The notes under the pieces are model-generated. The model did not search any database and was not told the DNA's origin. It saw only the letters and a program-made list of their open reading frames with translations. From NCBI GenBank assembly GCA_016124645.1, contig WGNE01000031.1, positions 59,557-123,556 of the forward strand: 64,000 bases of DNA, given 5' to 3'. Below are positions 14,636-64,000 of the stretch, in pieces. Source of the stretch: Alphaproteobacteria bacterium. Its GTDB lineage: Bacteria; Pseudomonadota; Alphaproteobacteria; Micavibrionales; UBA2020. Both the position numbers and the translations under genes were made by a program. Numbering within the stretch: the first letter of the stretch is position 1; each line of letters begins with the position of its first letter.

Positions 14636-17170
<2,535 letters not shown>

Positions 17171-17763: not shown

Positions 17764-18696
17764 TCAGTGCGCCGTCATCAGGACCAATAAGAGCGCGCAG
17801 AAAACCACGCCCATGCCCGAAGCGACGTCCGCTTCCTCCCGGAATTTCACGAAGCGGTAGAACAGCGCGATGAAGACCGGGGAGGTCAGCGCGATCGCGC
17901 CCACATAAGAAGGATTGGGCGTGAAGGCCATGGCGTAGTTCTTGTAAGTCATGGAGCAGATCCAGAGCAGCGCGGCCAGAAGCGCGGCCATGGCCATCCT
18001 GCGGTTCGCCCAGCTTTCGCGCGCTTCGCCTTTTTCGGCGAGTTTCGCGAGGGCCGAGGCCCGCTCCCGCCAGAGCACGTAGCCGCCGACGGCGAAAACG
18101 GCGAAGAAAGACTGCACGTAGATATAGCCGAAGACGGCGCCTTCCAGCTGGCCGCGTCCCATGGCGAACTTGTTGAGTGTGGCGGTCGCCGTATAGCCCG
18201 CCAGCGCAGGCAGCATGGCGACGAGGGCGCGGCGCGTCACCACGCAGCGGTTGAGCCGCATGGCGAAGAACACGCAGCCGCAAAGCGCGATCAAAATCCC
18301 CGCCGTGTTCAGCGGATGCGCTGCGTATTGCGAGAGCAGCGCGGGATCGAAAAGGAACCAGAGGAAGAACGCGCCGATGACCGTCACCGGCTGCACGCGC
18401 GCGGTCACGCCGCCGCCGTAGGCCGCGCTGACGTTGAGCGTGCGGATATCGGCGAAGGTGCCCCCCAGCACGGTGACAAAGACGGTGAGGTAGAACACGG
18501 GGTCGCGCGGCAGCAAAATCTCGTGAATGAGCGGGCTCAGGAAAATCACCACCAGCACCCGCATCCAGAACACCAGAAGGTGCCCCGGCTGTTTCAGGTA
18601 CTGGTTGACGAGGTAGAAGCCCCCCGTGAAGATCGCGGTGAAAAGGGCGAAAAGCGCCCAGCCGCCCCCCGCCATGAAGCCGTGGAAATCCGTCAC
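17764..18696 (-). CDS. polytopic membrane protein, DMT/EamA-like transporter candidate
   Basis: About 10 predicted TM helices in 310 aa. 4-nt overlap with the recF stop. Confidence 0.5.
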   Translation of the reverse strand: MTDFHGFMAGGGWALFALFTAIFTGGFYLVNQYLKQPGHLLVFWMRVLVVIFLSPLIHEILLPRDPVFYLTVFVTVLGGTFADIRTLNVSAAYGGGVTARVQPVTVIGAFFLWFLFDPALLSQYAAHPLNTAGILIALCGCVFFAMRLNRCVVTRRALVAMLPALAGYTATATLNKFAMGRGQLEGAVFGYIYVQSFFAVFAVGGYVLWRERASALAKLAEKGEARESWANRRMAMAALLAALLWICSMTYKNYAMAFTPNPSYVGAIALTSPVFIALFYRFVKFREEADVASGMGVVFCALLLVLMTAH

Positions 18697-19889
18697 GACG
18701 CCGCTTCCAGCCCGTTATCGTCATCGCGCGGCTTTTCCGCCTGCACGCGGCTGAAGCCCTGCGCCTGTCGCACGGTGAAGAACCGCGCCTTGCCTTCCAG
18801 CGGCTTAAAGATTTCGACATCCGTTCCCGTCAGCCAGACCTGCCCGCCGAAGGCGACCAGCTGCGCGAAAAGCTGTTCGCGGCGCGCATCGTCGAGATGC
18901 GCCGCGACTTCATCGAGAAGAAGAACGGGCACGAATCCCTTTTCGCCCTGCATCATCAGCGCATGGGCGAGGACGATGGAGATAAGCAGGCCTTTTTGCT
19001 CCCCGGTCGAGCACTGGTCCGCCGGCAAGTCCTTCGCCGCGTAGCGCACGAGAAAATCGCCGCGGTGAATGCCCTCCGACGAACGGCCGGCCACGGCATC
19101 CTTCGCGCGGGCCGCGTGGTAGCGGCGGCGCAGGTCTTCCTCCACCTCCAGCGCGGGTTTTTGCGCGAGGTCTTGTTCCACCTGCCCGGAAACGGAAATC
19201 TGCGGCGCGGGAAACAGCGACTGGCTGGCGGCCAGCCGCGCGATATATGCCTCCATCCGCTCGAGCAGGGAAAGCCGCGCGGCGGCGATGGAAACCGCTT
19301 CCCCCGCGAGCTGCGTTTCCAGCGCGTCGAGCCAGGCGGGGTCCGCCCTTCTGTCTTGCTGCAAAAGCTTCATGCGCTCGCGCAATTTTTTTTCATACCG
19401 GTTGAGGCGCGCGGCGTGCTCGGGCTCGCAGGCATAGACCAGCCGGTCGAAGAATTTGCGCCGCGCCGAGGCGCCCTCGAGAAACAGCCGGTCCATCTGC
19501 GGCGTGAGCCAGAGGACGGACATATGCTCGGACAGCGCGCTCTGGCTGCGCGCGTCCTTGCCGTCGATGCGCACGACGCGCCGCTTGACCCCCTTGTCCA
19601 GCCGGTCGAGCCCGGTGCCGAGGCGCATGGCCTGACCGCCCGCCGTCTCGATCTCCGCGGCCACGGCCCAGAGCTCCTTGGGGCCAGCGGCCCGGTTCTT
19701 GAGGTCCAGCAAGTCGGCCGAGCGCAGCCCCCGGCCGGGGGTCAGCAGGCTGATGGCCTCCAGGACATTGGTTTTTCCGGCGCCGTTGGGGCCCGTCAGG
19801 ACCACGATTCGGGCATCCGTCACGTCCAGACGCAGGGCGTCATAGCCCCGGAACTGGGTCAGATTGAGTTTTTGAAGAAAAAGCGGCAC
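18693..19889 (-). CDS. recF: DNA replication/repair protein RecF
   Basis: N-terminal LNLTQFRGY...LTGPNGAGKTNVLEAISLL. C-terminal signature STGEQKGLLISIVLAHA and LLLDEVAAHLD. Confidence 0.9.
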   Translation of the reverse strand: MPLFLQKLNLTQFRGYDALRLDVTDARIVVLTGPNGAGKTNVLEAISLLTPGRGLRSADLLDLKNRAAGPKELWAVAAEIETAGGQAMRLGTGLDRLDKGVKRRVVRIDGKDARSQSALSEHMSVLWLTPQMDRLFLEGASARRKFFDRLVYACEPEHAARLNRYEKKLRERMKLLQQDRRADPAWLDALETQLAGEAVSIAAARLSLLERMEAYIARLAASQSLFPAPQISVSGQVEQDLAQKPALEVEEDLRRRYHAARAKDAVAGRSSEGIHRGDFLVRYAAKDLPADQCSTGEQKGLLISIVLAHALMMQGEKGFVPVLLLDEVAAHLDDARREQLFAQLVAFGGQVWLTGTDVEIFKPLEGKARFFTVRQAQGFSRVQAEKPRDDDNGLEAAS

Positions 19890-20745: not shown

Positions 20746-21867
20746 TCAGACGCGCATCGGCATCAGCACGTAAAGCGAGGAACTGTCGCTCAGGTCCTGG
20801 ATGATGGTCGGCGAGGCGGGGTCGGAAAGCGACATGCGGCAGCCCTCGCCCTCGATCTGCTTCGCCACGTCCATCAGGTAGGCGGAGTTGAAGCCGATTT
20901 CCATCGGCCCCGCGTTGAACTGGATCTCGATTTCCTCGGACGCGCTGCCGCTGTCGGGCGAGTTGGCGGACAGCGTCATCGTCTTGCCGCCCAGCGTCAG
21001 CTTCACCGCGCGCGATTTTTCCGAGGAGATGGTGGAGACGCGGTCCACCGCGCTCGCGAAGATCGCGGGGTTGAGCTCGAGGAACTTGTCGTTGTTCTTG
21101 GGGATCACGCGCTCGTAATCGGGAAAGGTGCCGTCGATGAGCTTGGTCGTCATCGTCACGTGGTCGAAGGAGAAGCGCAGCTTGTTGTCGGTCAGGCCGA
21201 GCTCGATGGAATCGCCCGCCTCGTCGATGAGCTTGCGGATCTCGTTGATCGCCTTGCGCGGGATGATGACGCCCGGCATGTCCTTCGCGCCCTCGGGCAG
21301 CGGCATTTCGAAGCGCGCGAGGCGGTGGCCGTCGGTCGCGACCGCGCGCAGCACGGCGACGCCGTCGCTTTCCGCCGCGTGCAGGTAGATGCCGTTGAGG
21401 TAGTAGCGCGTTTCCTCGTTCGAGATGGCGAAGCGCGTGCGGTCGATGAGCGTGCGCAGGTCGCCCGCGGGAACGGGGAAGTTGTAGGTGAAATTCTCGG
21501 TGCTGCCCATCTTGGGGAAGTCCTCGGTCGGCAGGCAGCCGAGGCGGAAAGTGGACTTGCCTGCCTTGACCGTCAGCGTGGTGTCGCCCGCGTTGCTAGA
21601 GATCTCGACGTCGGAACCGTCCTGCAGCTTGCGCACGATGTCGTAGAGCGTATGCGCGGGCACCGTGGTCGCGCCCGGCGTGCCCACGCGCGCCGCGACG
21701 GATTCGATGATCTCGAGGTCCATATCCGTGGTGGTCAGCGACAGGCTGTCGTCCGCCGCGTGCAGCAGGACGTTGGCCAGAATGGGAATGGTGTTCCGGC
21801 GCTCGACGACGCTGTGCACGTGGTTGAGGGAGCGAAGCAGGTCGGCGCGGTCAATGGTGAATTTCAT
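20746..21867 (-). CDS. dnaN: DNA polymerase III beta sliding clamp
   Basis: MKFTIDRADLLRSL...PILANVLL... and C-terminal MPMRV. Start trimmed from the ORF-track start to the ATG at 21867. Confidence 0.95.
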   Translation of the reverse strand: MKFTIDRADLLRSLNHVHSVVERRNTIPILANVLLHAADDSLSLTTTDMDLEIIESVAARVGTPGATTVPAHTLYDIVRKLQDGSDVEISSNAGDTTLTVKAGKSTFRLGCLPTEDFPKMGSTENFTYNFPVPAGDLRTLIDRTRFAISNEETRYYLNGIYLHAAESDGVAVLRAVATDGHRLARFEMPLPEGAKDMPGVIIPRKAINEIRKLIDEAGDSIELGLTDNKLRFSFDHVTMTTKLIDGTFPDYERVIPKNNDKFLELNPAIFASAVDRVSTISSEKSRAVKLTLGGKTMTLSANSPDSGSASEEIEIQFNAGPMEIGFNSAYLMDVAKQIEGEGCRMSLSDPASPTIIQDLSDSSSLYVLMPMRV

Positions 21868-22084
21868 GGGCTTTTCCGTCCAGGCAAAGGCTTTAAGGGC
21901 AATATTTCTTAGATGGGCAATTATATCAACGCGATTCGAAAAACCCAAGCGAAAAGCCGCTTGCGGCGGCGCGCAAACCCCCGTCAGCCGCCGATTCCCG
22001 GCGTTTGGGGTACTCGCGAAGGCAGCGGAAAATGCGCACGGAAACGCCGGTCATCCAAGACCGCGTTTTATTTTCCGAAAAGAT

Positions 22085-38148: not shown

Positions 38149-40575
38149 ATGGGAATGGTCAGCGAAGAAATCAAAGCGGCCGCGAGAAACGGCGACGTCG
38201 GCGCGATGCTGCAATGGGCCTCGCACTGCATCAAGACCGACGCCGATTCCGCCGCAAGGGCGCGCGCCTTGCTGGGACTGGCGGAAAGCCGCAAGCCCCA
38301 GAGCATCTACGACCTTGCGACCGACATCTACCTTGGCGGAACGAAGGGGGCTTTCCTGCCCGTGCCGGAGCTTTCCACGCTGCTGTTCAAGCAGGCGGCG
38401 GCGGAAAAAAACGGCCTTGCGACCGAACGGCTGGGCGATATCGAGCTTCAGGCCAAAAGCCCCATCGGCGCGGTCGGCTATTACACCGCCGCGGCGAAGC
38501 TGGGCCAGACGAGCGCCGCGCTGAAGCTTGCCTATCTTCGGATATTCGGGCTGGGCGTGAGGCAGGACGTCCCGCGCGGCGTTTCGGAACTCAAGGAAAT
38601 CGCCGCGAAACGCCCGTCCGGCGACAGCAGCGTCAACGAAAGCGTCAGCACGACCATGGCCGCCACCGCCGCGCAGAAATCGCTGCAGGACGGGACGCTC
38701 GATATCCTTTTTTCCATGTACCTGCTGGACGCGGCGGATTACAAAAAGATTTGCAGCAAGGACGGCACCTGCAATATCGCCGATATCGAAGAGCATTTCA
38801 GCGGCACCCGCCGCGCCGCGGAATACCTGGGCAAGGCCGCCGCGCCGAAGGGCGAAAAATCCGCCGCCACCGCAAGCCCTGCCGCCGCCCCTTCGGTTGA
38901 CCCGCTTTTCGAGGCGCGCGCGAAAAGGGCGGAAGCGGGCGACCGCGCCGCGCTGGTGGAATGGACGCGCGGCACGCCGGAATACGCGGCCAATGCCGCC
39001 GGGGCGGAAAAGCTGCTCATGGGCATCGACGGGAAGATGGGGCGTTTCAGGTGCTTCGACCTCGGCACCCTGCTTTACAGCCGCGACGGGGACAACCGGC
39101 TGGCCGCCCTTTGGTATCAAAGGGCGGTATCGATGGGCGACAGCATTTCCGCCGAGTGCCTCGCGCGCATCGCCGCGCTGAAGGGCGACGGCAAGGCCGC
39201 AGCCGAATGGCTGAAAAAGGCGGCGGACATGGGCAATGCCTCCGGCCTTTACAAATACGGCATGTGCGCGTTTTTCGGCATCGGCATGAAGCGCGACGAA
39301 GAGGCGGGCATGGCGGATATCCGCAAGGCCGCCGACATGGGGGATGAAAGCGTGCACGGCGCGGCGCAGGCGCGGCTGACGCTTGAAAAGAAAAGCGTCT
39401 GCGCGGATTGCGTCAGCATGTTCTTGGGCAGTTCCGCCATCCGCGCGCTGAAGAACGCGGAAGGGCGGCTCGACGTTTCCGCGCTGGAGGCCTATTTCTC
39501 CAAGAACCCCTTCGCCGCACCGGCCCTGCCGGAAGCGCCGGCGACCGTCGCGGCGGGAACGCCCGCGGGAGATCTTTTCGCCGTGACGGCCCCCGGACAG
39601 GCGGACTTCCGCCGCCAGCCGGACGACATGGCGCAGCAGCCCCCGCGCCTCGCCCCCGTCGTCGCGCCCAACAACCCGATGGCGGACCTGAACGCGCTGA
39701 TCGGGCTGGAGAACGTGAAGGCAAGCGTCAAGGGCGTGGCCAACCGCATCGCCTTCGCGAAGATGCGCGAAAAGGCGGGGCTGCGGTTTTCCGACTTCAA
39801 CCTGCACTTCGTCTTCAGCGGCAACCCCGGCACGGGCAAGACCACGGTGGCCCGCATTCTGGGACGCATCCTGCATGCCGTCGGCTATCTGGCCACGGGC
39901 ACCGTCGTGGAGGCCACGGCGCAGGACATGATCGGCGAATACGTCGGTACCACGGGGCCGAAAACGATGGCTAAAATCAAGGAAGCGATGGGCGGGATCC
40001 TCTTCATCGACGAGGCCTACGCCCTGATGATGGCACAGGGCGCGACCGGCAAGTCTTTCTCCGGCGAGGCGGTGGCCGCGCTGCTCAAGCAGATGGAGGA
40101 CCGGCGCGGCGAATTCGTCGTCGTCGCAGCGGGCTACCCCGAGGAGATGAAGAAATTCGTCAACTTCAACCCGGGATTAAGCTCGCGCTTCACCGAATAC
40201 ATCGATTTTTCCGACTACGGCAGCGACGAGCTGGAAAAAATCTTCATGAAGATGCTGAAGGACAACGAATACGACCTCGCGCCCGACGCGCAGGGCGAGC
40301 TGCCGCGCATGATGACGGAAGCGCCCTCGCTGTTCGACCGCAACTTTCCCAACGCGCGCTTCGTGCGCAACCTATATGAAGACTGCGAGCAGTTCATGTC
40401 CAACCGGGTGATCGAGAAATTCGGCGGCCACGGCGCGAACGCCGGACAGGCGGGCCTGCAGGACCTGACCACCATCGAGAGGCCCGACCTCGACAAGGCC
40501 TACGACAAGCAGCGCGCGGCGGCGAAAATGCTGGGCGACAAGCAATCGAACCCCATCGGCTTCCTGTCGCGGTAA
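38149..40575 (+). CDS. Sel1-repeat protein fused to a CbbX/SpoVK/EccA-type AAA+ ATPase
   Basis: N-terminal two-thirds carries Sel1-like repeats (e.g. AAEWLKKAADMGNASGLYKYGMCAFFGIGMKRDEEAG). Walker A GNPGTGKTT (about 39820). Walker B ILFIDEAY (about 39997). ...VVVAAGYPEEM...NPGLSSRF. Confidence 0.8.
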   Translation: MGMVSEEIKAAARNGDVGAMLQWASHCIKTDADSAARARALLGLAESRKPQSIYDLATDIYLGGTKGAFLPVPELSTLLFKQAAAEKNGLATERLGDIELQAKSPIGAVGYYTAAAKLGQTSAALKLAYLRIFGLGVRQDVPRGVSELKEIAAKRPSGDSSVNESVSTTMAATAAQKSLQDGTLDILFSMYLLDAADYKKICSKDGTCNIADIEEHFSGTRRAAEYLGKAAAPKGEKSAATASPAAAPSVDPLFEARAKRAEAGDRAALVEWTRGTPEYAANAAGAEKLLMGIDGKMGRFRCFDLGTLLYSRDGDNRLAALWYQRAVSMGDSISAECLARIAALKGDGKAAAEWLKKAADMGNASGLYKYGMCAFFGIGMKRDEEAGMADIRKAADMGDESVHGAAQARLTLEKKSVCADCVSMFLGSSAIRALKNAEGRLDVSALEAYFSKNPFAAPALPEAPATVAAGTPAGDLFAVTAPGQADFRRQPDDMAQQPPRLAPVVAPNNPMADLNALIGLENVKASVKGVANRIAFAKMREKAGLRFSDFNLHFVFSGNPGTGKTTVARILGRILHAVGYLATGTVVEATAQDMIGEYVGTTGPKTMAKIKEAMGGILFIDEAYALMMAQGATGKSFSGEAVAALLKQMEDRRGEFVVVAAGYPEEMKKFVNFNPGLSSRFTEYIDFSDYGSDELEKIFMKMLKDNEYDLAPDAQGELPRMMTEAPSLFDRNFPNARFVRNLYEDCEQFMSNRVIEKFGGHGANAGQAGLQDLTTIERPDLDKAYDKQRAAAKMLGDKQSNPIGFLSR

Positions 40576-40645: not shown

Positions 40646-41956
40646 CTACTGGTTCATCAGCTTGAAGAATTCGTCGTTGTTCTTGGTGTCCTTCATCTTG
40701 TCCAGCAGGAACTCGATGGCATCGACCGTGCCCATGGAAGACATAAGCTTGCGCAAGATCCACATCTTGCTGAGGTTGTCGCGACCGACGAGGAGCTCTT
40801 CCTTGCGCGTGCCGGATTTCTGGATGTCGATGGCGGGGAAGACGCGCTTGTCCGCCAGCTTGCGGTCGAGCACGATCTCGGAGTTGCCGGTGCCCTTGAA
40901 TTCCTCGAAGATCACCTCGTCCATGCGCGAGCCGGTGTCGATGAGCGCGGTGGAGATGATGGTGAGCGAGCCGCCCTGTTCGATGTTGCGCGCCGCGCCG
41001 AAGAAGCGTTTCGGGCGTTGCAGGGCGTTGGCGTCCACGCCGCCGGTCAGGACCTTGCCGGAGGACGGCACGACCGTGTTGTAGGCGCGGCCGAGGCGGG
41101 TGATGGAATCGAGCAGGATGACCACGTCGCGCTTGTGCTCGACGAGGCGCTTGGCTTTTTCCAGTACCATTTCCGCGACCTGCACGTGGCGGGCGGCGGG
41201 TTCGTCGAAGGTGGAGGAGATGACCTCGCCCTTCACGGAGCGCGCCATATCCGTCACTTCCTCCGGCCGCTCGTCGATGAGCAGCACGATGAGGTAGGCG
41301 CCGGGGTGGTTGGTCTCGATCGAATGGGCGATGTTCTGCATCATCACCGTTTTACCCGTGCGGGGCTGCGCGACGATGAGGGCGCGCTGGCCGAAGCCGA
41401 TGGGCGAGACGAGCTCGATCACGCGCTGGACCATGCATTTCTTGGTCGGGTCGTCGAGCTCGAGCTTGATCTTGCGGTCGGGGTAGAGCGGGGTGAGGTT
41501 GTCGAAGTTGATGCGGTGCTTGATGCTTTCCGGCCCTTCGAAGTTGATCTGGTTCACGCGCAGCAGGGCGAAATATCGCTCGTTGTCCTTGGGCGCGCGG
41601 ATCTCGCCTTCCACGGTATCGCCGGTGCGAAGGCCGAAGCGCTTGATCTGGCTGGGGGAGACGTAGATGTCGTCCGGTCCCGGCAGGTAGTTTTCTTCCG
41701 GGGAGCGCAGGAAGCCGAAGCCGTCCTGCAGGACTTCCAGCACGCCGGAGCCGGAAATGGGAATGTTCTGCTCCGCCAGGCTTTTCAGGATGGCGAACAT
41801 CATTTCCTGTTTGCGCATGGTGGAGGTGTTTTCGATGCCGAGGCTTTCGGCATAGGCCAGCAGCTCGGCCGGGGATTTGGTCTTCAGCTCGTGCAGGTCC
41901 ATGATCTTGGCGTTAGGGTCGCGCTCGGGCAGGTTCGCCTCTTCCTCTTCGGTCAT
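40646..41956 (-). CDS. rho: transcription termination factor Rho
   Basis: [40 protein letters not shown]..., RNP motifs, Walker A PRTGKT. Start ambiguous: ATG 41902, ATG 41956 or GTG 42061. The ORF-track start at 42232 overlaps the predicted promoter. Confidence 0.95.
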
Positions 41957-42231
41957 GTCGTCCTGCGGCAAGTGGCCGTTTCCATTTCCGTTGCCGTTGC
42001 TGTTGCCGCCGCGTGAGTTGCCGCCTGACTGTCGGCCGGAATGACGTGTGCGTTTTACCACTGTATGCTCTTTCGTATGCTGATGTCTTTTAGGGGAATG
42101 ATGATGCGCCTGATGCGTGCATCTTGAGTTGCTTTGGAAGACCGGTTGCGGATCTGAATTTGCGTTTGATGTCTTGAATGAATGCCGGGACAACCAAAAA
42201 TGCGGGCCGGATTTCAAGAGTAGATAGCGCA

Positions 42232-42260
42232 AAAATAGACATTTTTCAGATGTATGTCAA
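42232..42260 (-). promoter_or_regulatory. candidate sigma70-type promoter of rho (long leader)
   Basis: Minus strand reads TTGACA (42260-55), 17-nt spacer, TATTTT (42237-32). Confidence 0.4.
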
Positions 42261-42521
42261 CTGCGCATTCCGGGTTTATTCATAAAAATGGGCGAAAAAG
42301 GCAGGAAAATGACCTGTTTCGGGGTTTTTATTTTCATAATCCTGTAAAAACAGGGCATGGCGATGGGCGGTACAGGTGTACACGGCTTCCTCCCCTGCGG
42401 GTTCGGGCGCGCCGGTTCCGGCCTTTGTCGCTCTTTGTCGCCTGCCCCGGTCATTAGGAATTACCAAAGCCATCCCTTGCCGTTATACTTTGCGATACTT
42501 GAACGAAGGATACGCCCGCCG

Positions 42522-44348
42522 ATGACCGCCCCCGCCCGCAAAACCGCGAAAAAAACGCCAGCCCGGACCAGCTTCGACGTTTTCACCGGCTTCCTGCGCG
42601 AGAACAAGCCCGCGCAGATCTTCCTTTGCGCGCTGATGGGCGTGGTGGTCGGCATGATCACGGGCGGGCTGCACAGCTTCGTTTCCTTTTTGCACCACGC
42701 GGCCTTCATGCTGCCCGCGCACGAGCATTTGAGCGCGGCGGACCATGTCGCCCCATGGCTTTTGTTCACCGTGCCGGTCGCGGGCGGATTGTTGCTGGGG
42801 ATTTCCGCACCCTGGCTGCGCAAGGCTTTTCCGGGCGACATCATCGACCCAATCGAGGCGAACGCGATTTACGGCGGGCGCATGACGGTCGGCGGCAGCT
42901 TGCGCCTTCTCATGGCGACGCTGATCTCCAACGGCTCGGGCATCTCGGTCGGGATGGAGGCCGCCTATACGCAGGTCGGCGCCTGCTGGATGTCATGGGC
43001 GGGCAGCAAGCTTCAATTGCGCCGCTCGGACGTGCGCATCTTCGTCGCCGCCGGCGCGGGCGCGGCCATCGCCGCCGCCTACAACGCGCCGCTGGCAGGC
43101 GCCTTTTACGGATACGAGCTGGTGCTGGGCCATTACGCCATTGCCGCCCTGCCGCAGGTGACGCTGGCCGCGCTTTTCGCCGTGCTGGTGCTGCACGTCT
43201 TCACCGCGGGCACGCCGATTTTCTCCCTGCCGATGCAGACGCTGGACATTCCGGTGCGCGATTACGTGGCCTTCCTCATCGTCGGCGCGGCGGCTTCCGT
43301 CGTCGCCATCATCGTCATGAAGGCGGTGACGGGGTCGGAGCGGGTCTTTTCGCGCCTGCCGGTGCCCGAATGGCTGCGCCCCGCCATCGGCGGGCTGCTG
43401 GTCGGCACGCTGGCCTTCACGCTGTCCCCGCAGGTGCTGGGCAGCGGTCAGGGCGGCATCGACGAGCATCTGCACAACACATGGCCGCTGGGCTTTTTGT
43501 TCCTTTTGCTGCTGGGCAAAATGGCGGCATCGTCCCTGTCCATCGGCTCGGGCTTTCGCGGCGGGCTGTTCAGCGCCTCGCTCTTCCTCGGCTGCCTGCT
43601 GGGGCAGATCTCCGCCATCATCGCCAGCCATTTCATCCCGATGTCGGATACGGCCTTCGCCACCTTCATCCTCGCGGGCACCGGTTCGGTCGCGGCGGCC
43701 GTCGTCGGCGCGCCCATGACCATGATGATGCTGGTGCTGGAAATGACCGGCAGCTTCCCCGCCATGACGGCGGTGCTGGCGGGCATTCTCGTGTCCTCCA
43801 CCGTTACGCGGTACAGTTTCGGCTATTCCTTCTCAACATGGCGTTTCCACTTGAAGGGCATCGGCATTTCCGGCGCGCGGGACGTGGGCTGGCTGCGCGA
43901 GCTGACGGTTGAAAAATTGATGCGCAGCGACGCGCCCACCGCCCCCGCCGCCGAAACGCTGGCGGCGCTGCGCGAAAAACTGCCGCTGGCGAGCGGGCTG
44001 CGCAACGTCTTTCTTGTCGATGACAAGGGAAATTACCAAGGCGTCCTGAGCATCGGCGACCTGCACGCGCCGGGCCGCGAGACGCCCGCGACGGAAGAAG
44101 GAAAACCCGAAACCGAAACGAAGGAACAAGACGCGCTCTCCCTCGCCAAGGCGAAGGACAGCTTCCTGCTGCCCCGCCAGAACCTGCAGGACGCCCTGCG
44201 CGTCTTCGCGGAGGCGCGGCAGGAAGAGCTGCCCGTGCTGGCCGGCCAGCGCAAGCGCCAGATCATCGGCTACGCCCGCGAAGACCAGCTGCTGCGCCGC
44301 TACTCGCAGGAGCTGGAAAACAACCACATGGCGCAATTCGGGAACTGA
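42522..44348 (+). CDS. ClC-family chloride/proton channel-transporter with C-terminal CBS pair
   Basis: GSGISVGMEAA, GFRGGLFSASLFLG, many TM helices. The C-terminal region VFLVDDKGNYQGVLSIGDL is CBS-like. Start trimmed to the ATG at 42522. Confidence 0.85.
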   Translation: MTAPARKTAKKTPARTSFDVFTGFLRENKPAQIFLCALMGVVVGMITGGLHSFVSFLHHAAFMLPAHEHLSAADHVAPWLLFTVPVAGGLLLGISAPWLRKAFPGDIIDPIEANAIYGGRMTVGGSLRLLMATLISNGSGISVGMEAAYTQVGACWMSWAGSKLQLRRSDVRIFVAAGAGAAIAAAYNAPLAGAFYGYELVLGHYAIAALPQVTLAALFAVLVLHVFTAGTPIFSLPMQTLDIPVRDYVAFLIVGAAASVVAIIVMKAVTGSERVFSRLPVPEWLRPAIGGLLVGTLAFTLSPQVLGSGQGGIDEHLHNTWPLGFLFLLLLGKMAASSLSIGSGFRGGLFSASLFLGCLLGQISAIIASHFIPMSDTAFATFILAGTGSVAAAVVGAPMTMMMLVLEMTGSFPAMTAVLAGILVSSTVTRYSFGYSFSTWRFHLKGIGISGARDVGWLRELTVEKLMRSDAPTAPAAETLAALREKLPLASGLRNVFLVDDKGNYQGVLSIGDLHAPGRETPATEEGKPETETKEQDALSLAKAKDSFLLPRQNLQDALRVFAEARQEELPVLAGQRKRQIIGYAREDQLLRRYSQELENNHMAQFGN

Positions 44349-44361
44349 CCGGGAAAAAACT

Positions 44362-44823
44362 TTACTGCCAAGGCTTCACCACCACCATGATGACGATGAG
44401 GATCATGAGCACCGTGGGCGCTTCGTTGAGGATGCGGTAGAATTTCGCGGGCCGCTTGTTCTCGTCCTTCAAGAAGACCTTGCGCGTTTTCGCAAGGAAG
44501 CCGTGAACCCCCGAAAGCAAAAGCACCGCCGTCAGCTTGACGTGGAACCAGCCCTGCGTGAGCACGGCGGGATTGCCGAGCACGAGGAAGATGCCGAAAA
44601 GCCACGTCGCCCCCATGGCGGGGTTGATGATGACGCGCAAAAGCTTGCGCTCCATGATCTTCAGCGTCTCCGACAGCTCGGAGCCCTTGTCCGCATCCGC
44701 GTGATAGACGAAAAGCCGGGGCAGGTAGAGCATGCCCGCCATCCATGAAATGACGGCGATGATGTGCAGGGCTTTCACCCAGTTGTAATGGTCTGCGAAG
44801 AACGCGACGGGCTGGAACGGCAT
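44362..44823 (-). CDS. hemJ: protoporphyrinogen IX oxidase HemJ
   Basis: W.KALHIIAVISWMAGMLYLPRLFVYH... 4-TM UPF0093/HemJ pattern. Downstream of hemE-hemH. Confidence 0.8.
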   Translation of the reverse strand: MPFQPVAFFADHYNWVKALHIIAVISWMAGMLYLPRLFVYHADADKGSELSETLKIMERKLLRVIINPAMGATWLFGIFLVLGNPAVLTQGWFHVKLTAVLLLSGVHGFLAKTRKVFLKDENKRPAKFYRILNEAPTVLMILIVIMVVVKPWQ

Positions 44824-44854: not shown

Positions 44855-45898
44855 CTACGCCGCCTGTTTCAGGCCTTCCTGCGCCTTGCAGGGACAGCGG
44901 GTGAATTTTTCAGGACAGATTTTTTCGCAAACCGATCCGCCCTGCGCGCGGCGGACCATGGCGGCGAGGCCGGAGATGAAATGCGGCTGCGCGCCGACGG
45001 TTTCGGCCTTGCCGAAATAGGGGATGCCGAGGTCTTTCGCCATGCGGCGGTAGTCCATGTCGATTTCCACCAGCGTCTCGACATGTTCGGACACGAAGGC
45101 ATGGGGATAGATGATGACGCCGGTCTTGTCCGCCGCCGCCTTGCCCAGCGCCTCGATGGTCGAGGGGCCGATCCACTTCATGGGCCCGACGCGGCTTTGG
45201 TAGCAGATCTGCCAGTCGAGGTCCGGGACTTCCCGTGCGATTTTTTCGGCTATCTTTTCCGCCGTCAGCTCGCACTGGCGCTGGTAGGGATCGCCCGCGG
45301 CGACCACCTTTTCTGGCAAGCCGTGGGCGGAGAACAGCAGGCGGATCCTGCCGTCGTAAGTCTTGCGCGCTTCTTCGAAGGCTACGCGGATTTGCGCAAC
45401 GGAAGCGGCGATGAATCCTTCATCTTCGGGATAGCAGCAAATCTCGCTCAGCTTCGCCTTTTCGAATATATCCGCGCAGGCTTTTTTGATGTCCTCGAAG
45501 GACGAGCCGGTCGTGGTGGTGGAGAATTGCGGATAGAGCGGCAGGAGAATGACATGCTCCGGCGCATATTCGCGCAGCTGCTTGGCGAGCGCTTCGCTGT
45601 CCGGCTGCCAGTAGCGCATGGAGATGAAAACCTTCGCCGCATCGCCCAGTTCTTTTTGCAGCGCGTCGGCCTGCGCTTGTGTATTCTCGAGCAGGGGGGA
45701 TTTGTAGCCGAGTTCCCTGTAGGCGCTTTTCGCCGCTCCCATGCTGCGGGAGAGGGAAATATACTGCGCCAGCGCCCAGCGTATCGGCAGCGGCGCGCCG
45801 ATGATGTTCTTGTCCATGAAAAAGCGGTAGAGGTACGGACGGATGTCTTCGCGCTTGAGCGGCCCGCCGAGGTTCAAGAGGACAACGGCGGTCTTCAC
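44855..45898 (-). CDS. hemH: ferrochelatase (with C-terminal Cys cluster)
   Basis: VVLLNLGGP, LPLYPQFS, SAHGLP, HVETL. GTG start overlapping the hemE stop (GTGA). The ORF-track N-terminal extension is rejected. Confidence 0.9.
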   Translation of the reverse strand: MKTAVVLLNLGGPLKREDIRPYLYRFFMDKNIIGAPLPIRWALAQYISLSRSMGAAKSAYRELGYKSPLLENTQAQADALQKELGDAAKVFISMRYWQPDSEALAKQLREYAPEHVILLPLYPQFSTTTTGSSFEDIKKACADIFEKAKLSEICCYPEDEGFIAASVAQIRVAFEEARKTYDGRIRLLFSAHGLPEKVVAAGDPYQRQCELTAEKIAEKIAREVPDLDWQICYQSRVGPMKWIGPSTIEALGKAAADKTGVIIYPHAFVSEHVETLVEIDMDYRRMAKDLGIPYFGKAETVGAQPHFISGLAAMVRRAQGGSVCEKICPEKFTRCPCKAQEGLKQAA

Positions 45899-46959
45899 GG
45901 CTTGTGCCCCCGTATGATGGCCGCCAGCCGCGCGACGTGTTCGGGCGGTGTTTCCTTGATGATGCCGTGGCCGAGGTTGAAGATGAATGGCTTGCCCGCG
46001 GCTTCGTCCAGAATATCCATGACGGCCTCTTCCATCTGCACGCCGCCCTGAAGCAAAAGTTCCGGCGCAAGGTTTCCCTGAAGGCAGATGGCGTCGCCGC
46101 ATATTTCCCGCGCGCGGGTGATGGAAATTTCCTGGCCCAGACCCATGCCGTTCACGCCGGTGGCGGCGGCGTATTTCCCGCAGGCTTCGCCCACGCCGCG
46201 CGGAAAGCCGATGACGGGCGTTGCGGGGCAATCGCGGCGCAGGATATCCATCAGCGCCTTCGTGGGGGCGATGACCCAACGCTCGAATTCTTCAGGCGGC
46301 AGCAGGCCCGCCCAGCTGTCGAATATCTGCAGCACGTCCGCGCCCGCCTTGACCTGCGCGGTCAGGTAACGGGCCGTGGCGGCGACGAGGATATCCATGA
46401 GGTTTTGAAAATCATCCGGGTTCTGTTTGGCGAAATCCTGCGCGGCCTGAAAGACGCCGCCGCCCCTGCCCTCGATCATGTAGCAGGCAACCGTCCAGGG
46501 CGCGCCCGCGAAACCGATGAGGCTTTTATGCGCCGGCAGTTCCGCGCGCACGCGGCGCACGGTCTCATAAACCGGCGACAGCTTTTCATCGAAGGCGTCA
46601 TAGCCGAGCCCGCTGAAAGCCTGCGTATCCCCCAGCAGTTCCAGCCGCGGCCCCTCGCCCGGCGCGAACCAGAGCTTTTGCCCGAGGGCGTGCGGAATGA
46701 CCAGAATGTCAGAGAACAAAATCGCCGCATCCATGTCGAAACGGCGCAGGGGCTGCAAGGTGACTTCCGCCGCCCATTCGGGATTGAAGCAAAGGTCGAG
46801 AAAGCCGCCTGCCCGCTCCCTGAGGGCCCTGTATTCCGGCAGGTACCTTCCCGCCTGCCGCATGAGCCAGAAGGGCGCTGGCGTCGCCGCCTGCCCCGAA
46901 AGAACCCTTTTCAAGGGCTGGGGCTGGTCTTGCTTTTTGGTGACGGGCTGTTGTGTCAT
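45895..46959 (-). CDS. hemE: uroporphyrinogen decarboxylase
   Basis: PFWLMRQAGRYLPEYR signature. Start trimmed to the ATG at 46959. Confidence 0.95.
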   Translation of the reverse strand: MTQQPVTKKQDQPQPLKRVLSGQAATPAPFWLMRQAGRYLPEYRALRERAGGFLDLCFNPEWAAEVTLQPLRRFDMDAAILFSDILVIPHALGQKLWFAPGEGPRLELLGDTQAFSGLGYDAFDEKLSPVYETVRRVRAELPAHKSLIGFAGAPWTVACYMIEGRGGGVFQAAQDFAKQNPDDFQNLMDILVAATARYLTAQVKAGADVLQIFDSWAGLLPPEEFERWVIAPTKALMDILRRDCPATPVIGFPRGVGEACGKYAAATGVNGMGLGQEISITRAREICGDAICLQGNLAPELLLQGGVQMEEAVMDILDEAAGKPFIFNLGHGIIKETPPEHVARLAAIIRGHKP

Positions 46960-47220
46960 ATGCTTGCCTGAAGGCCTTGTGATGATCCGTTTCAAGGGAA
47001 AGTGCCAGCTTTTGGGCGGGCTTGGAAGAAAAACCCTCTTAAATAATAGTATTAATTAAAGGTTGTTGGAGTCTGTAGGACGGTGGATAGCGGGGATATG
47101 CGGACGGCGGCGGAATTACCCACACAAGGGGCGAACGGCAAACACGTCGCTGCTGTGCGCGGTTTGGCGTATAAGCGGGATTCATAAAATGAATCCGGTG
47201 GTTTAAAAACTTGTGGATTT

Positions 47221-47229
47221 TGTGGATAA
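47221..47229 (-). promoter_or_regulatory. DnaA box, perfect consensus (TGTGGATAA = rc TTATCCACA)
   Basis: Exact 9-mer, directly preceded by the related TGTGGATTT (47212-20). Confidence 0.6.
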
Positions 47230-47374
47230 GTTTTGATTCCGTAAAAGGGAGTTATCCCCATCATTCCATTCCAGAGTCCGCCTTTGGAAAAACGGCCTAA
47301 GTGCTTGTTCGGACTCGTTGACTTATTCTTAAGAGGTTTCATCCATAAATTGATCAGCAGGGATATCCAGCGGC

Positions 47375-47383
47375 TTATCCACA
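47375..47383 (+). promoter_or_regulatory. DnaA box, perfect consensus TTATCCACA
   Basis: Exact 9-mer in the hemE upstream spacer. Confidence 0.6.
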
Positions 47384-47422
47384 GCGCCTGCGGCCTTTTC
47401 ATGCGCTCGCAATCCCGATAAG

Positions 47423-48088
47423 ATGAAAAGGTTGAATACAAAACCGCGAAAAGCGCGGGTCAGCATAAGGTTTAGAGGGATGATTGAGGACTGGCAGAAA
47501 CTTGACCCCGAGCGCGCGGCCCGCGTCTTGAGCGACATCAACCCGTATCTGGAGCCCGTGCCCTTCTCCGAGGGCGAGACCACGGTGCGCATGCAGCGCC
47601 TGCCCTTTTACAAGGACTATACGTTTTACGAGCTCACCGATCTTTCCGCCGTGCCGGGGGCGCGCAAATATGCGCTGTGCAAGCCGGGCGACGTGAACGT
47701 CGTCAACTGGACCAACCAGACGATTTACGAGACGAACGAAAAGGCGCCGATCGCGCTGAACGACGACAGCGTCGTTGACTACGTGAAGTTCTTCTTCAAT
47801 TACGTGCGCGGCCGCCACGGCAGGTTCCTGATCATCGAGAGCATCGACGACATCCGCTGGCAGGTGGAGCCGCCGCTGCAGGGCCGCAAGGTCATGCAGG
47901 AAATGCTCGAGCCCGTGACGGTCATCGGCAAGGACGAGGACGGCACCTATAACCTCGAGGCCTTCATGGTCTTCAAGGACAGCCTGTTCAAGACCAAGGT
48001 GCACGTCAAGCGCGACGGCCTCGTCAGCATGTCCGAAGAGGAACTCAAGATCGAGGGCATGCCCGTCCTTCAGGACGCGGCAGCGTAG
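47423..48088 (+). CDS. hypothetical protein (first gene right of the predicted origin)
   Basis: ORF with coding-like composition. Start uncertain (47423 or ATG 47480). 9-nt gap to the kinase-like gene. Confidence 0.5.
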   Translation: MKRLNTKPRKARVSIRFRGMIEDWQKLDPERAARVLSDINPYLEPVPFSEGETTVRMQRLPFYKDYTFYELTDLSAVPGARKYALCKPGDVNVVNWTNQTIYETNEKAPIALNDDSVVDYVKFFFNYVRGRHGRFLIIESIDDIRWQVEPPLQGRKVMQEMLEPVTVIGKDEDGTYNLEAFMVFKDSLFKTKVHVKRDGLVSMSEEELKIEGMPVLQDAAA

Positions 48089-48097
48089 AAAGCCATC

Positions 48098-49132
48098 ATG
48101 TCGGCCCTGCTCAAAGAACCCGAAGCGCGCGAAAAGAAGCCCCTGTTTTCAGACCTTCCGCCCGCCATGCTCCGGCAGATAGAGGATATGGTGGGCGACA
48201 AGATCGCAAGCAGCGACGTCGCCTTCGGCGGGCTGTCGTCTTCGGCGGGATTCATCATGACGCTTCAATCGGGCCGCCGGGTCTTCGCCAAGGGCACGCA
48301 TCCGGGCGAATTGTCGCACGGCGCGAAGAACCTCGGGCAGGAGGTCATGGCCTATGAAACGCTGGACATCCTGCGCGCCGTGGCGCCGCCCTATATCGGC
48401 GTCGTCTCCGACGGGGACGAGGACGGCTGGATGCTCGGCATCTGGGACTTCGTGCCGCACGACCCAAACCTTGCGAGCGCGCAGCGGGTGATGGAGGTCA
48501 TGAAACGCTGGCAGGCCGACCGGGAGGCGCAGGGCATCCTGCCGCCCGCGCGCAAGCAGGTCTATATCGACCAGTTCTTCACGGGCGACAAGAAATGGCT
48601 GCGCTTGCGGCATGACGAGGGCGTGCGGAAAAAATTTCTCTCGATGTTCGCCCAACCCAGCCTTGCCGGGAAGTGGTTCGAGCACAACATGGTGGCGTTG
48701 TGCCAGTGGCAGGCGCGGGTGGAGAAGATGGAAACCGCCGAGGGGCTGCTGCACGGCGACCTGCGTCTCGACAATTTCCTCTTCGCGCTCGAGCGCAGCT
48801 TCGCGGTCGATTGGCCGAACGCCTGCTGGGGGCCGCTGGCGCTGGACCTCGTCTTCATTTTTTCCAACATGGAGGCGATGGGCTATGGCCAGACGGAAAA
48901 GCTTTTCGACGAATACGCGCAGACGGGCGGCGCGGCCATCGACCCGGACGACCGCGCGGTGATGCTGACGGCGGTCTCGGGCTATTTCGCGGACCAGGCC
49001 TATCGCGAGGTGCCGGAAAAACTGCCCCGGCTGCGCTGGATGCAGAAATCCATGCTGCTGGCGCAGCTCAAATGCATGGCGCGGCTGGGAATCATCGAAT
49101 CACCCCCGCAGATGAACGGCGAAAACGCCTGA
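48098..49132 (+). CDS. APH/choline-kinase-like phosphotransferase family protein
   Basis: Brenner motif HGDLRLDNFLF followed by AVDWPNACWGPLALDL, as in aminoglycoside/small-molecule kinases. Confidence 0.7.
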   Translation: MSALLKEPEAREKKPLFSDLPPAMLRQIEDMVGDKIASSDVAFGGLSSSAGFIMTLQSGRRVFAKGTHPGELSHGAKNLGQEVMAYETLDILRAVAPPYIGVVSDGDEDGWMLGIWDFVPHDPNLASAQRVMEVMKRWQADREAQGILPPARKQVYIDQFFTGDKKWLRLRHDEGVRKKFLSMFAQPSLAGKWFEHNMVALCQWQARVEKMETAEGLLHGDLRLDNFLFALERSFAVDWPNACWGPLALDLVFIFSNMEAMGYGQTEKLFDEYAQTGGAAIDPDDRAVMLTAVSGYFADQAYREVPEKLPRLRWMQKSMLLAQLKCMARLGIIESPPQMNGENA

Positions 49133-51944: not shown

Positions 51945-52685
51945 TCACTGCAGGTCCAGCAGGTGCGCCTCGCCCTTGTCGGAAAGCCATTTGCGGGCCA
52001 TGTCCATCGCGCGGTCCTTTTCGCGGCGGGAAAGCTGGGTGTAGATATTGTCGCGGTCCTGCTCGGCGCGTTTTTTCGCCTCGCCTTCCGGGTAATGGAC
52101 GATGGCGATATGCAGCCACATCAGCGCGGTCACGGCGTCTTTCTCCATCCCCTGCCCGAGGAAGTACATGGTGGCAAGGTGGTGCTCGGCCAGCGGCCGG
52201 TCGGCGTCCGCCGCGCGGGAGAGGAACATCTTGGCCTTCGCGAAGTCCTGCGGCACGCCCTGCCCCTGGTGATACATGATGCCGATAAGCTCTTCCGCGC
52301 CGTGGTGGCCGGAAACGGCCAGCGGCAAAAGGTTTTCGGCCACGCGCTTGTAGTCGCCCTTGTTGTAGAGGTCGAGAATGGCGTCGTAGTTCAGGCGGTG
52401 GGTGGTGATTTCATAGACCTGATCGGATTTATTCTCTTTCGGTTTTTCCTTCTTCGCGACGTTGTCCAGCAGCACGCCCTCGGGCACGTCGTCGTATTCG
52501 CTGACCGGCGGAATGCGCGCGTCCTGACTCTGCGTCTCGGTGTCGCCGAAGAGCTCTTCCATGGCGGCGTCGCCGTTGTCTTTCTTCGGGGGGCCGTCCG
52601 CATGCGCGGCGCCGACGGCCAGGAACCCCCAGCAAAGGGCCACCGCGGCCAGCAGCGTCATTTTGTGCATGGATTTTCGGCGCAT
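51945..52685 (-). CDS. secreted Sel1-repeat (TPR-like) protein
   Basis: Signal peptide MTLLAAVALCWGFLAVGAAHA/DG. Sel1 units (GAEELIGIMYHQGQGVPQDFAKAKMFLSRAAD, LAEHHLATMYFLGQGMEKDAVTALMWL). Confidence 0.8.
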   Translation of the reverse strand: MRRKSMHKMTLLAAVALCWGFLAVGAAHADGPPKKDNGDAAMEELFGDTETQSQDARIPPVSEYDDVPEGVLLDNVAKKEKPKENKSDQVYEITTHRLNYDAILDLYNKGDYKRVAENLLPLAVSGHHGAEELIGIMYHQGQGVPQDFAKAKMFLSRAADADRPLAEHHLATMYFLGQGMEKDAVTALMWLHIAIVHYPEGEAKKRAEQDRDNIYTQLSRREKDRAMDMARKWLSDKGEAHLLDLQ

Positions 52686-61877: not shown

Positions 61878-63758
61878 ATGAAAACAAAATATGATGTCAT
61901 CGTGATCGGGGGCGGACATGCGGGCTGCGAGGCGGCGGCCGCATCCGCGCGCATGGGCGCCGATACGCTGCTTTTGACCCACAAGGTCGAGAGCGTGGGC
62001 GTCATGTCCTGCAACCCCGCCATCGGCGGCCTTGGCAAGGGCCACCTCGTGCGCGAGATCGACGCGCTGGACGGGGTGATGGGCCGCGTCATCGACAAAT
62101 CCGGCATCCAGTTCCGCATGCTCAACGCCAGCAAGGGCCCCGCCGTGCGCGGCCCGCGCGCGCAGGCCGACCGCAAGCTTTACCGGGAGAACATGCAGGA
62201 AATACTGCTGGATTACCCCAACCTCACCGTCTTCGGCGACGGGGCGGAGGAAATTTTGCGCGACGCGGACGGCAATATCCGCGGTGTGACCTCCAGCGGC
62301 GGGCATGAGTTTTCCTGCGGCGCGCTGGTCATTACTACCGGCACTTTCCTGCGCGGGGTCATCCACCGCGGGGCGGAGCAATCGGCCGGCGGGCGCGTGG
62401 GCGAGAAACCCTCGGTCGGGCTCGCGCTCAGCATCGAAAAACTGGGGCTGCCGCTGGGGCGCCTGAAGACCGGCACCCCTGCGCGGCTGGACGGCAAGAC
62501 GATTGACTGGGCCGCGCTGGAAGAACAGCCGGGCGACAATCCGCCCGTGCCCTTTTCCTTCATGAACACCGAAGTGACAGTGCCGCAGATCTCCTGCCAC
62601 ATCACTTACACCAATGAAAAGACGCATGAGGTCATCCGCGACAACCTGCATGTGGCCCCCATGTATTCGGGCCAGATCAAGGGGGTGGGGCCGCGCTATT
62701 GCCCCTCGATCGAGGACAAGGTCGTGCGCTTCGCCGACAAGTCGCGCCATCAGGTCTTTCTGGAGCCGGAGGGGCGGGACGACGATACGGTCTATCCGAA
62801 CGGCATTTCCACCTCCCTGCCTGCCGAGGTTCAGGCGGCGATGATCAAGACCATTCCGGGGCTGGAGAACGCGGCCATCCTCGTGCCCGGCTACGCCATC
62901 GAATACGACTATGTCGATCCGCGCGCGCTGAAACGCACGCTGGAGGTGCGCGGCGTTTCCGGCCTGTTTCTGGCGGGCCAGATCAACGGCACCACGGGCT
63001 ACGAGGAAGCGGGCGCGCAGGGGCTGGTGGCGGGCGTCAACGCCGCCCTTGCCGCCGCGGGCCGCAAGGAAGAATTCACGCTGGACCGCGCGGACGGCTA
63101 TATCGGCGTGCTTATCGACGACCTCGTGACGCAGGGCGTGTCCGAGCCTTACCGCATGTTCACCAGCCGCGCGGAATACCGCCTGCTGCTGCGCGCCGAC
63201 AACGCCGATCAGCGGCTGACCCCGGCGGGCCTGTCCATCGGCTGCGTGGGCGGGGACCGCGCGGCGGTCTTCGAGGCGAAACAGCAACAACTGGAAGCGG
63301 CCCGCGCCCTCGTCAACGGCCTGACCGCCCTGCCCGTGGAGCTGGAGCGCATGGGCTTCAAGATCAATCAGGACGGGGTGCGCCGCTCCGTCCACGACCT
63401 GATGCGCTACCCCGATATCAGCATCGCCGCGCTTTCCGAACGCTGGCCGGAGCTGGCGGAAATCCCCGCCGATATCGTGGAGCAGGTCGAGATCGACGCG
63501 CGCTACGCGGGCTATATCCAGCGGCAGGAAGCGGATATCAAGGCTTTCCGCCGGGACGAAGCGCTGGCGCTGCCGAAAGACCTCGACTACGCGCAGGTCG
63601 GCAGCCTGTCGAACGAGATGCGCCTGAAACTCTCCCGGCACCGGCCCGATACGCTGGGCGCGGCGGCGCGCATTCCGGGCGTGACCCCGGCGGCCCTCGT
63701 CGCCCTGCTGCGCCACGTCAAGCGCAAGCCGGACACGAAAGACCGCAACGTTGCCTAG
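61878..63758 (+). CDS. mnmG: tRNA uridine 5-carboxymethylaminomethyl modification enzyme MnmG (GidA)
   Basis: [36 protein letters not shown], full-length 626 aa. Confidence 0.95.
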
Positions 63759-64000
63759 CCGTATAGAACAGACCTTCGAGCGCCACGGCTTCTTTGTTTC
63801 ACGTGAAACGCTTCAGAAGATGGAGCATTACGAACAGCTTCTCCTGAAGTGGCAGAAGGCCATCAACCTCGTCGGCCCCGCGACGCTGGACGACGTGGCG
63901 GAGCGGCATTTCTTCGATTCCGCGCAGCTTTTCCGCTACGTGAAGGACGTGGACGCGAAGCTGGTCGATCTCGGCTCCGGCGCGGGCTTTCCGGGGATCG
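63751..64000 (+). CDS. rsmG: 16S rRNA (guanine527-N7)-methyltransferase RsmG (GidB), 5' part truncated by the window end
   Basis: ...[47 protein letters not shown]...[13 protein letters not shown]. The start (TTG 63751, overlapping the mnmG end) is uncertain. Confidence 0.8.
63795..63810. promoter_or_regulatory. parS-like centromere site (TGTTTCACGTGAAACG)
   Basis: 14-bp perfect palindrome GTTTCACGTGAAAC matches the core of the parS consensus TGTTNCACGTGAAACA. Embedded in the VSRET codons of rsmG. Confidence 0.65.

Follow-up and report, generated by a model that had tools for sequence, protein, structure and literature searches.

We describe here an intergenic spacer in a 64-kb stretch of contig WGNE01000031.1 from an uncultured alphaproteobacterium, the whole of which (64,000 nucleotides) we refer to as the window. 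The spacer lies between hemE, which encodes uroporphyrinogen decarboxylase, and a gene for a 202-residue protein that we call p202, both of which read away from it, and it holds a cluster of DnaA boxes, six GANTC sites and an AT-rich tract. From this sequence and its counterparts in related genomes we consider it very probable that the spacer (positions 46960-47479) serves this organism as its chromosomal replication origin (oriC).

The genes of the window were called from third-position G+C and then named with Pfam and NCBIfam. The spacer directly adjoins the start codon of hemE, whose match to TIGR01464 exceeds the cut-off of that model, and since the hemE ATG is at 46959 and that of p202 at 47480, the spacer extends to 47479 and measures 520 bp; the right-hand edge at 47422 (about 460 bp) given by the initial annotation, which would have the next gene begin at 47423, has to be moved accordingly. 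The p202 start at 47480 is backed by alignments to homologues, which begin at residue 20 of the longer open reading frame (ORF), and the same ATG was chosen when genes were called independently on a contig of 99.86% identity. The G+C content of the spacer is 48%, as compared to about 62% in the window. Coordinates of the features discussed below are collected in Table 1.

DnaA boxes and the predicted unwinding region

The initial annotation had listed two exact TTATCCACA boxes (47221-29 on the minus strand and 47375-83 on the plus strand), two boxes with one mismatch (47116-24 and 47252-60, both plus) and a two-mismatch box (47212-20) abutting a perfect one, and all of these are present. Scanning for TTATCCACA at up to one mismatch returned five matches in the 64 kb, four of which fall inside 268 bp of this spacer, the fifth lying outside it at 49289-97. 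Three further degenerate sites (47363-71 and the tandem pair 47082-90/47091-99) bring the spacer to eight box-like sites in 302 bp: two exact and two each with one, two and three mismatches. No other DnaA-box cluster was found among the spacers of the window. In 1000 Markov-1 simulations of 64 kb there were never more than two boxes per 300 bp, as compared to the four observed, and a model trained on the spacer itself yielded four boxes in only 1 of 1000 runs of 64 kb, a length 123 times that of the spacer.

The boxes are also ordered. The proximal tandem pair points towards the AT-rich tract and hemE, the distal pair has the same orientation, and the one is a direct repeat of the other at a spacing of 130 bp. 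Boxes that are degenerate in the window are near-consensus in the related genomes described below, where both tandem pairs read TTATCCCCG-TTATCCAC[AC]. Within the best-conserved block, at 47251-47279, GGATAA is invariant across the alignment.

The AT-rich patches that had been noted in the spacer are borne out by G+C fractions of 0.25-0.28 at 47020-47079 and 0.30 at 47180-47239. The G+C minimum of the spacer falls in a tract that we predict to be the DNA-unwinding element (DUE), and a stretch resembling a DnaA-trio sits between the proximal box pair and this tract. The DnaA-trio of Clostridioides difficile reads 5'-CACCTACTACTATTACTACTATGA-3' (PMC7561715), and by comparison with that study the relatives' CTACAAACTACTACTA resembles it; their repeats on the box strand, CTACTACTA, correspond to 3'-GAT-5' three times over on the other strand and lie 10 nt from the box (as measured in L002). 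Two versions of this region can be told apart in alignment columns 455-470. L001-L005 and L013 read CTACAAACTACTACTA, which has canonical trios and lacks GANTC; the window, L006, L009, L018, L025 and L027 read CTACAGACTCCAACTA, in which trios are fewer and a GANTC is present. The stretch in the window is of a degenerate kind, CTACAGACTCCAACAACC, in which GANTC replaces two trios; the window and five aligned relatives read CTACAGACTCC, by which the GANTC is made and only two in-phase trios are left.

We also applied a formal criterion for the basal unwinding system (BUS), namely a DnaA box (at most 2 mismatches), a spacer of at most 16 nt, at least three in-phase NAN trios on the strand complementary to the box, and then AT-rich DNA. 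Searched as a regular expression, this gave scattered matches that were not aligned between sequences, and because they did not line up the core was judged from the alignment and a profile search.

GANTC, CtrA and IHF sites

All six GANTC sites that had been annotated at 47069-47316 are present. The window as a whole holds 67 GANTC as compared to 276 expected from shuffles, a four-fold depletion, and the density rises from 0.70/kb in coding DNA to 3.2/kb in the other spacers and 11.5/kb in the hemE-p202 spacer. Such depletion together with concentration in spacers is the signature expected under a CcrM-type methyltransferase. The annotated expectation of about one site was not far off, the composition of the spacer predicting 2 per 520 bp, with other intergenic DNA being the fairer background; the excess has P = 0.007 against that background and 2e-5 against the whole window. 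By itself the cluster is moderately unusual for intergenic DNA, and its weight comes from conservation. Among 17 aligned spacers a GANTC occupies the same column as 47274-78 in 14, 47312-16 in 11, 47235-39 in 8, 47191-95 in 7 and 47069-73 in 6, so that five of the six positions in the window recur in relatives. Close relatives have 9.1 GANTC per kb upstream of hemE versus 1.3 elsewhere, and the remaining loci 6.5 versus 1.8. Two of the sites in the window lie in a perfect palindrome (47178-47196) that is specific to its lineage, the relatives having one GANTC there (7 of the 17 aligned); this palindrome may be the binding site of a dimeric protein.

The spacer has no full TTAA-N7-TTAA site for CtrA, as had been reported, and a single loose TTWW-N7-TTWW match; full CtrA sites likewise number zero in 15 of 16 close relatives. 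The IHF consensus WATCAN5WTR matched nothing in the spacer or in 15 of the 16 relatives, in a search by consensus only, IHF sites being degenerate.

Conservation in related genomes

Relatives were collected by a HemE scan of a genome collection, which gave 80 loci, mostly from metagenome-assembled genomes (MAGs) labelled Alphaproteobacteria, Micavibrio or Rhodospirillales, with 62% as the best HemE identity. Exact-protein look-up found no match for hemE; for p202 and hemJ it gave a single 7.2-kb contig, which at 99.86% identity is too close for footprinting. The closer relatives keep the order rho-hemJ-hemH-hemE-spacer-p202-kinase-DUF6782, and 17 orthologous spacers, from genomes with a HemE identity of 53-62%, can be aligned, although neutral DNA should be unalignable at such a distance. 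The conserved blocks coincide with the DnaA boxes, the AT-rich tract and several of the GANTC sites. In relatives at 48-62% HemE identity, the boxes, several GANTC positions and the core hold their place and orientation.

When the 230 bp preceding hemE were inspected by eye, one core was seen nearly everywhere among the 80 loci: an ATCCCC-type box and a second box are followed by a short G+C spacer, by CTAC/TAC repeats and finally by a run of AT-rich sequence. A profile of this core (68 alignment columns, the AT-rich tract among them) was searched with nhmmer against both strands of the 80 loci, about 0.9 Mb, and gave 48 matches. Of these, 47, from 44 loci, are immediately upstream of hemE and share one orientation, and they extend down to 48% HemE identity. 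Across 78 loci DnaA boxes reach a density of 3.35/kb over the 600 bp preceding hemE, 15 times the 0.22/kb found elsewhere.

Gene orientation and nucleotide skew

The initial annotation had also described essential genes to the left of the spacer as lying on the minus strand and genes immediately to its right as lying on the plus strand, in keeping with divergent replication. This is true of rho, mnmE, mreB-rodA, dnaN, recF, gyrB and hemE/H/J, all minus, and of the first four genes on the right, uniformly plus; taken over whole flanks the bias is weaker, with 14.6 kb plus versus 27.2 kb minus on the left and 8.7 kb plus versus 6.6 kb minus on the right. Third-position skew in the window is dominated by a coding-strand effect (-0.13). 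The strand-corrected replication term is about -0.05 below 21 kb, +0.01 from 21 to 47 kb and +0.07 beyond 47 kb.

For the relatives we pooled genes that lie up to about 6 kb from hemE in the 80 loci and that cross-locus BLASTP showed to be conserved, 617 in all. Between 81 and 83% of them read away from the spacer. When third-position skew was regressed on side and strand, the side term came to +0.062 (locus-bootstrap 95% confidence interval 0.044-0.079) with the expected polarity, and the best-fitting switch in skew falls between -500 and 0 relative to the hemE start, i.e. in the spacer. The pooled skew is independent support for replication diverging at the orthologous spacer in relatives.

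Table 1. Features of the predicted origin and its surroundings (window coordinates)
Feature	Position	Strand	Basis or remark
Predicted oriC (whole hemE-p202 spacer)	46960..47479		Only spacer of the window with a DnaA-box cluster
hemE, uroporphyrinogen decarboxylase; left boundary, reads away from origin	45895..46959	-	Pfam URO-D 2e-107; NCBIfam TIGR01464 2e-111
AT-rich tract TTAAATAATAGTATTAATTAAA, 21/22 A/T; predicted DNA-unwinding element	47039..47060		Spacer G+C minimum; aligned with relatives' TAATACTTATATATAT
DnaA-trio-like stretch GTCCTACAGACTCCAACAACC, includes GANTC 47069-73	47061..47081	-	Aligned with relatives' CTACAAACTACTACTA
Proximal tandem pair: ATATCCCCG (47091-99, 3 mismatches) and CTATCCACC (47082-90, 2 mismatches)	47082..47099	-	Relatives' consensus TTATCCCCG-TTATCCACC
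DnaA box TTACCCACA, 1 mismatch	47116..47124	+	Aligned with GTGGATAAAAC in relatives
Perfect 8-bp palindrome GGATTCAT-AAA-ATGAATCC, two GANTC (47179-83, 47191-95)	47178..47196		Sequence
Distal tandem pair: TTATCCACA (47221-29, exact) and AAATCCACA (47212-20, 2 mismatches)	47212..47229	-	Relatives' conserved block TTATCCCCGTTATCCAC
Further GANTC	47235-39		Column in 8/17
Best-conserved block GGACTCTGGAAT..GGGGATAAC: box TTATCCCCA (47252-60, +) and GANTC 47274-78	47251..47279	-	Alignment of 17
Conserved block ACGAGTCCGAACAAGCAC with GANTC 47312-16	47301..47318	-	GANTC column in 11/17
Far-end pair: ATATCCAGC (47363-71, 3 mismatches; 0-1 in relatives) and exact TTATCCACA (47375-83)	47363..47383	+	Relatives' consensus TGTGGATAAnCCTnTGGATAA
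p202, 202-aa protein; right boundary, reads away from origin	47480..48088	+	Gene call
rho	40646-42232	-	Gene call and family match
ClC channel	42357-44348	+	Gene call and family match
hemJ-like UPF0093	44362-44823	-	Gene call and family match
hemH	44855-~45900	-	Gene call and family match
APH-like kinase	48098-49132	+	Gene call and family match
Two DUF6782 genes, right of the APH-like kinase		+	Gene call and family match
gidA, followed by the start of gidB	61878-63758	+	Pfam/NCBIfam
parS-like site TGTTTCACGTGAAACG, 1 mismatch to consensus, within gidB	63795..63810	+	0.1 expected by chance

Neighbouring genes and p202

The gene p202 is better conserved than hemE, with 70-83% identity in relatives where HemE has 53-62%, and it always lies next to the origin and divergent from hemE. 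We found 397 homologues, and all of those with a source name are called "hypothetical protein". Sequence and profile searches with p202 found no Pfam, NCBIfam or PDB match, and its AlphaFold model (pLDDT 83, pTM 0.80) had no Foldseek match in the PDB at E<0.01; weak matches to PUR repeats (E 0.25-0.6) are not evidence. We considered whether p202 is a homologue of RP001/CC0001 and rejected this, that family being DUF299 (PMC1914354) and p202 having no such match; none of the window proteins scanned matched DUF299.

Farther to the left, the minus strand carries mnmE, GMP reductase, mreB-mreC-(mreD)-pbp2-rodA, dnaN, recF and gyrB. The group of dnaN (20746-21948), recF (18693-19889) and gyrB (14636-17164) is about 25 kb from the origin, and upstream of dnaN there is a gene of the N-formylglutamate amidohydrolase family in place of dnaA. 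The parS-like site just past gidA, about 16 kb from the predicted origin, is regarded as context and not as part of oriC.

With regard to transcription, a sigma-70 consensus scan found no promoter, and the one terminator-like hairpin (47444-47458, minus strand) is within chance expectation. A motif AAAACTGGCA(C/T) at 47003-47016 (minus strand; alignment columns ~543-553), located past the AT-rich tract and ahead of the start codon of hemE, is kept in many relatives; it resembles the sigma-54 -24 element (TGGCAC), without a good -12 element, and could be a promoter or operator of hemE, or a part of the origin. Rfam detected no RNA in the spacer or elsewhere in the 64 kb, and the window has no tRNA genes.

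Some features of the wider window may be of separate interest. The rho ORF encodes 528 aa with its Rho_N domain beginning only at residue 115, so either the protein has about 110 extra residues at its N-terminus or the start codon was placed too early. A run at 3910-10811 (minus strand) includes four to five ankyrin-repeat genes, and there are two Sel1-repeat proteins, at 38149-40575 (plus) and 51945-52685 (minus), one of them fused to an AAA ATPase. Such eukaryote-like ankyrin and Sel1 repeat proteins suggest a host-associated or predatory lifestyle.

Discussion

The spacer has the features by which an oriC is commonly recognized: a cluster of DnaA boxes (at least three in a few hundred bp), an AT-rich element flanking the box array, at 47039-47060, and divergent genes accompanied by origin-proximal markers. 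The hemE-linked origin proposed in the initial annotation is therefore upheld by a broader set of observations, which includes the conserved boxes, GANTC sites and AT-rich tract, the 15-fold enrichment of boxes, the gene divergence and skew switch in 80 loci, the parS-like site, gidA/gidB, dnaN-recF-gyrB, mnmE and rho.

The arrangement fits the general model of DnaA action and the basal unwinding system. On such a model DnaA would bind first to the two consensus boxes, at 47375-83 and 47221-29, after which ATP-DnaA would load cooperatively onto the TTATCCCC-type and degenerate boxes, which are weaker. The tandem pairs at 47212-29 and 47082-99, sharing one orientation, would steer the DnaA oligomer towards hemE, where it would engage the trio-like stretch at 47061-81 and open the AT-rich tract at 47039-60. 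Helicase would then be loaded, and two forks would depart in opposite directions, co-directional with hemE-hemH-hemJ-rho on the one side and with p202 and its neighbours on the other. As substrates for a CcrM-type methyltransferase, the six GANTC sites would become hemimethylated once the origin fires; they would probably serve to link the cell cycle with the origin itself or with the divergent promoters of hemE and p202 that it contains. Because methylation of the Caulobacter origin, Cori, is not required for normal replication in that organism (PMC6393856), a role of the GANTC sites in controlling the hemE and p202 promoters is as likely as a role in initiation. We infer DnaA binding, the site of unwinding and the part played by methylation from the sequence.

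Several of our results weigh against an origin at this position. The gene dnaA is not in the 64-kb window; within these 64 kb, raw cumulative GC skew is lowest at about 21 kb, in the dnaN region, and not at 47 kb; and the corrected skew has the right polarity, but its step at 47 kb is no clearer than that at 21 kb. KOPS-like GGGNAGGG octamers in the window gave no signal, the strand bias of KOPS-like and unbiased k-mers being a matter of low counts confounded by gene strand. In the pooled set strand and side are almost collinear near the spacer, and the correction rests on the distal bins; these bins, with their mixed strands, still differ between the two sides (-0.052 +/- 0.018 versus +0.061 +/- 0.021). 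The trio region of the window itself falls short of the formal BUS criterion because only two in-phase trios stand beside the box; the nearest run of five such trios lies inside the AT-rich tract, its start 26 nt away.

Some of these points could be accommodated if the spacer were a DnaA-regulated divergent promoter, or a titrating or reactivating locus of the datA/DARS kind, with the true oriC elsewhere, for instance beside dnaA: this would agree with the absence of dnaA from the window and with a raw minimum at 21 kb and a corrected skew that do not single out 47 kb, and the promoters of both flanking genes must in any case lie inside the spacer. We nonetheless regard it as very unlikely, given eight box-like sites with two oriented tandem pairs leading into a conserved trio-like and AT-rich element, a skew switch and gene divergence that map to the spacer in 80 relatives, and a hemE-adjacent position homologous to that of the mapped Caulobacter origin (PMC6393856); in addition the parS-like site and gidAB lie 16 kb away and the 64 kb contains no other box cluster. 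That the motifs are a chance product of AT-richer intergenic DNA, without any DnaA function, is improbable in the extreme. The intergenic DNA of the window is indeed richer in A+T and in GANTC than coding DNA, and relative to it the GANTC excess alone is modest (P = 0.007), but four boxes per 300 bp arose in none of 1000 runs at window composition and in one of 1000 spacer-trained runs, and the position and orientation of the motifs are kept where neutral DNA would not align, which effectively refutes this explanation.

If the spacer is the chromosomal origin, as we believe, one may ask how it is controlled. We think it unlikely, if worth keeping in mind, that it is gated mainly by GANTC methylation or by p202, and not by CtrA as in Caulobacter. 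Pointing in this direction are the lack of CtrA and IHF consensus sites in the window and 16 close relatives (L014 and L018 excepted), the retention of GANTC positions in 14/17, 11/17, 8/17 and 7/17 spacers, the GANTC in the trio-like region of six lineages including the window, where others have canonical CTACTACTA, and the strong conservation of p202 beside the origin. Set against this, CcrM methylation of Cori is unneeded for normal replication control in Caulobacter (PMC6393856), the GANTC sites may have been kept through blocks conserved for other reasons or through promoter control, CtrA sites are usually lacking outside Caulobacter and Rickettsia (PMC4468827), and nothing ties p202 to DNA, there being no domain or fold match. 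We might speculate further, on what we would call a quite unlikely scenario, that the origin of this clade works without CtrA and IHF sites and is gated by CcrM at conserved GANTC sites, one of which replaces trios such that methylation would affect the engagement of DnaA with single-stranded DNA or the opening of the duplex, with p202 as an origin-associated regulator.

Our finding is confirmatory rather than surprising, since a hemE-linked origin with CcrM sites is already textbook knowledge. It would nevertheless fix the likely start of replication for an uncultured alphaproteobacterial group, whose relatives are Micavibrio-like or Rhodospirillales-like MAGs, and could be used in genome orientation, in replichore analysis and in growth-rate estimates from metagenomic coverage. 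It also shows that very distant alphaproteobacteria have in common a compact core beside hemE, made up of tandem DnaA boxes, CTAC/trio repeats and an AT-rich tract, but not the regulatory additions of Caulobacter (CtrA, IHF, DUF299). For specialists, the deeply conserved unwinding core, the positioned GANTC sites, including one in the trio region, and the orphan p202 may be of most interest.

Comparison with known origins

Origins linked to hemE have also been predicted in Rickettsia, Wolbachia, Ehrlichia and Anaplasma. The best reference for our locus is Cori of Caulobacter, which has been mapped experimentally and is flanked by hemE on one side and by CC0001 (COG1806/DUF299) on the other. 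Its DnaA boxes are two moderate G-boxes and five weak W-boxes, and it has five CtrA and five GANTC sites, a single IHF site and an AT-rich region (PMC6393856, PMC1914354). Like Cori, the spacer lies directly upstream of hemE, is about 0.5 kb long, has multiple DnaA boxes including weak variants of the TCCCC type, carries its AT-rich region on the hemE side, has a similar number of GANTC sites (6 as compared to 5) and holds the promoters of both flanking genes. Unlike Cori, which has only moderate G-boxes and weak W-boxes, it has two full high-affinity TTATCCACA boxes (PMC4468827, PMC6393856); its second boundary gene is p202 and not the COG1806/DUF299 gene (CC0001, RP001) of Caulobacter and Rickettsia; it has no CtrA or IHF consensus sites; and no small RNA was detected in it with Rfam. 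The lack of CtrA sites is unsurprising because their absence from origins is the rule outside Caulobacter and Rickettsia (PMC4468827). Thus, where the initial annotation had spoken of a Caulobacter-type arrangement, the description suits the location, the DnaA boxes, the GANTC sites and the AT-rich tract, and does not extend to CtrA sites, IHF consensus sites or a DUF299 boundary gene.

In the basal unwinding system a pair of boxes guides a DnaA oligomer onto trinucleotide repeats (consensus 3'-GAT-5') beside the site of unwinding (PMC8287927). The succession of tandem pair, short G+C spacer, CTAC-type repeats and AT-rich tract resembles this system as found in Bacillus subtilis, Clostridioides difficile and Helicobacter pylori, the difference being the degenerate trio stretch of the window, which lacks three in-phase NAN trios within 16 nt.

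The likeness to oriC of E. coli lies in the clustered methylation sites, which would be hemimethylated after firing, and in the oriented arrays of high- and low-affinity DnaA boxes beside a DUE; here, unlike in E. coli, the sites are GANTC for CcrM and not GATC for Dam, and the flanking genes differ. We know of no SeqA homologue in alphaproteobacteria. We would class the locus with the DnaA-dependent alphaproteobacterial oriCs linked to hemE, and not as a CtrA-controlled origin of the Cori type.

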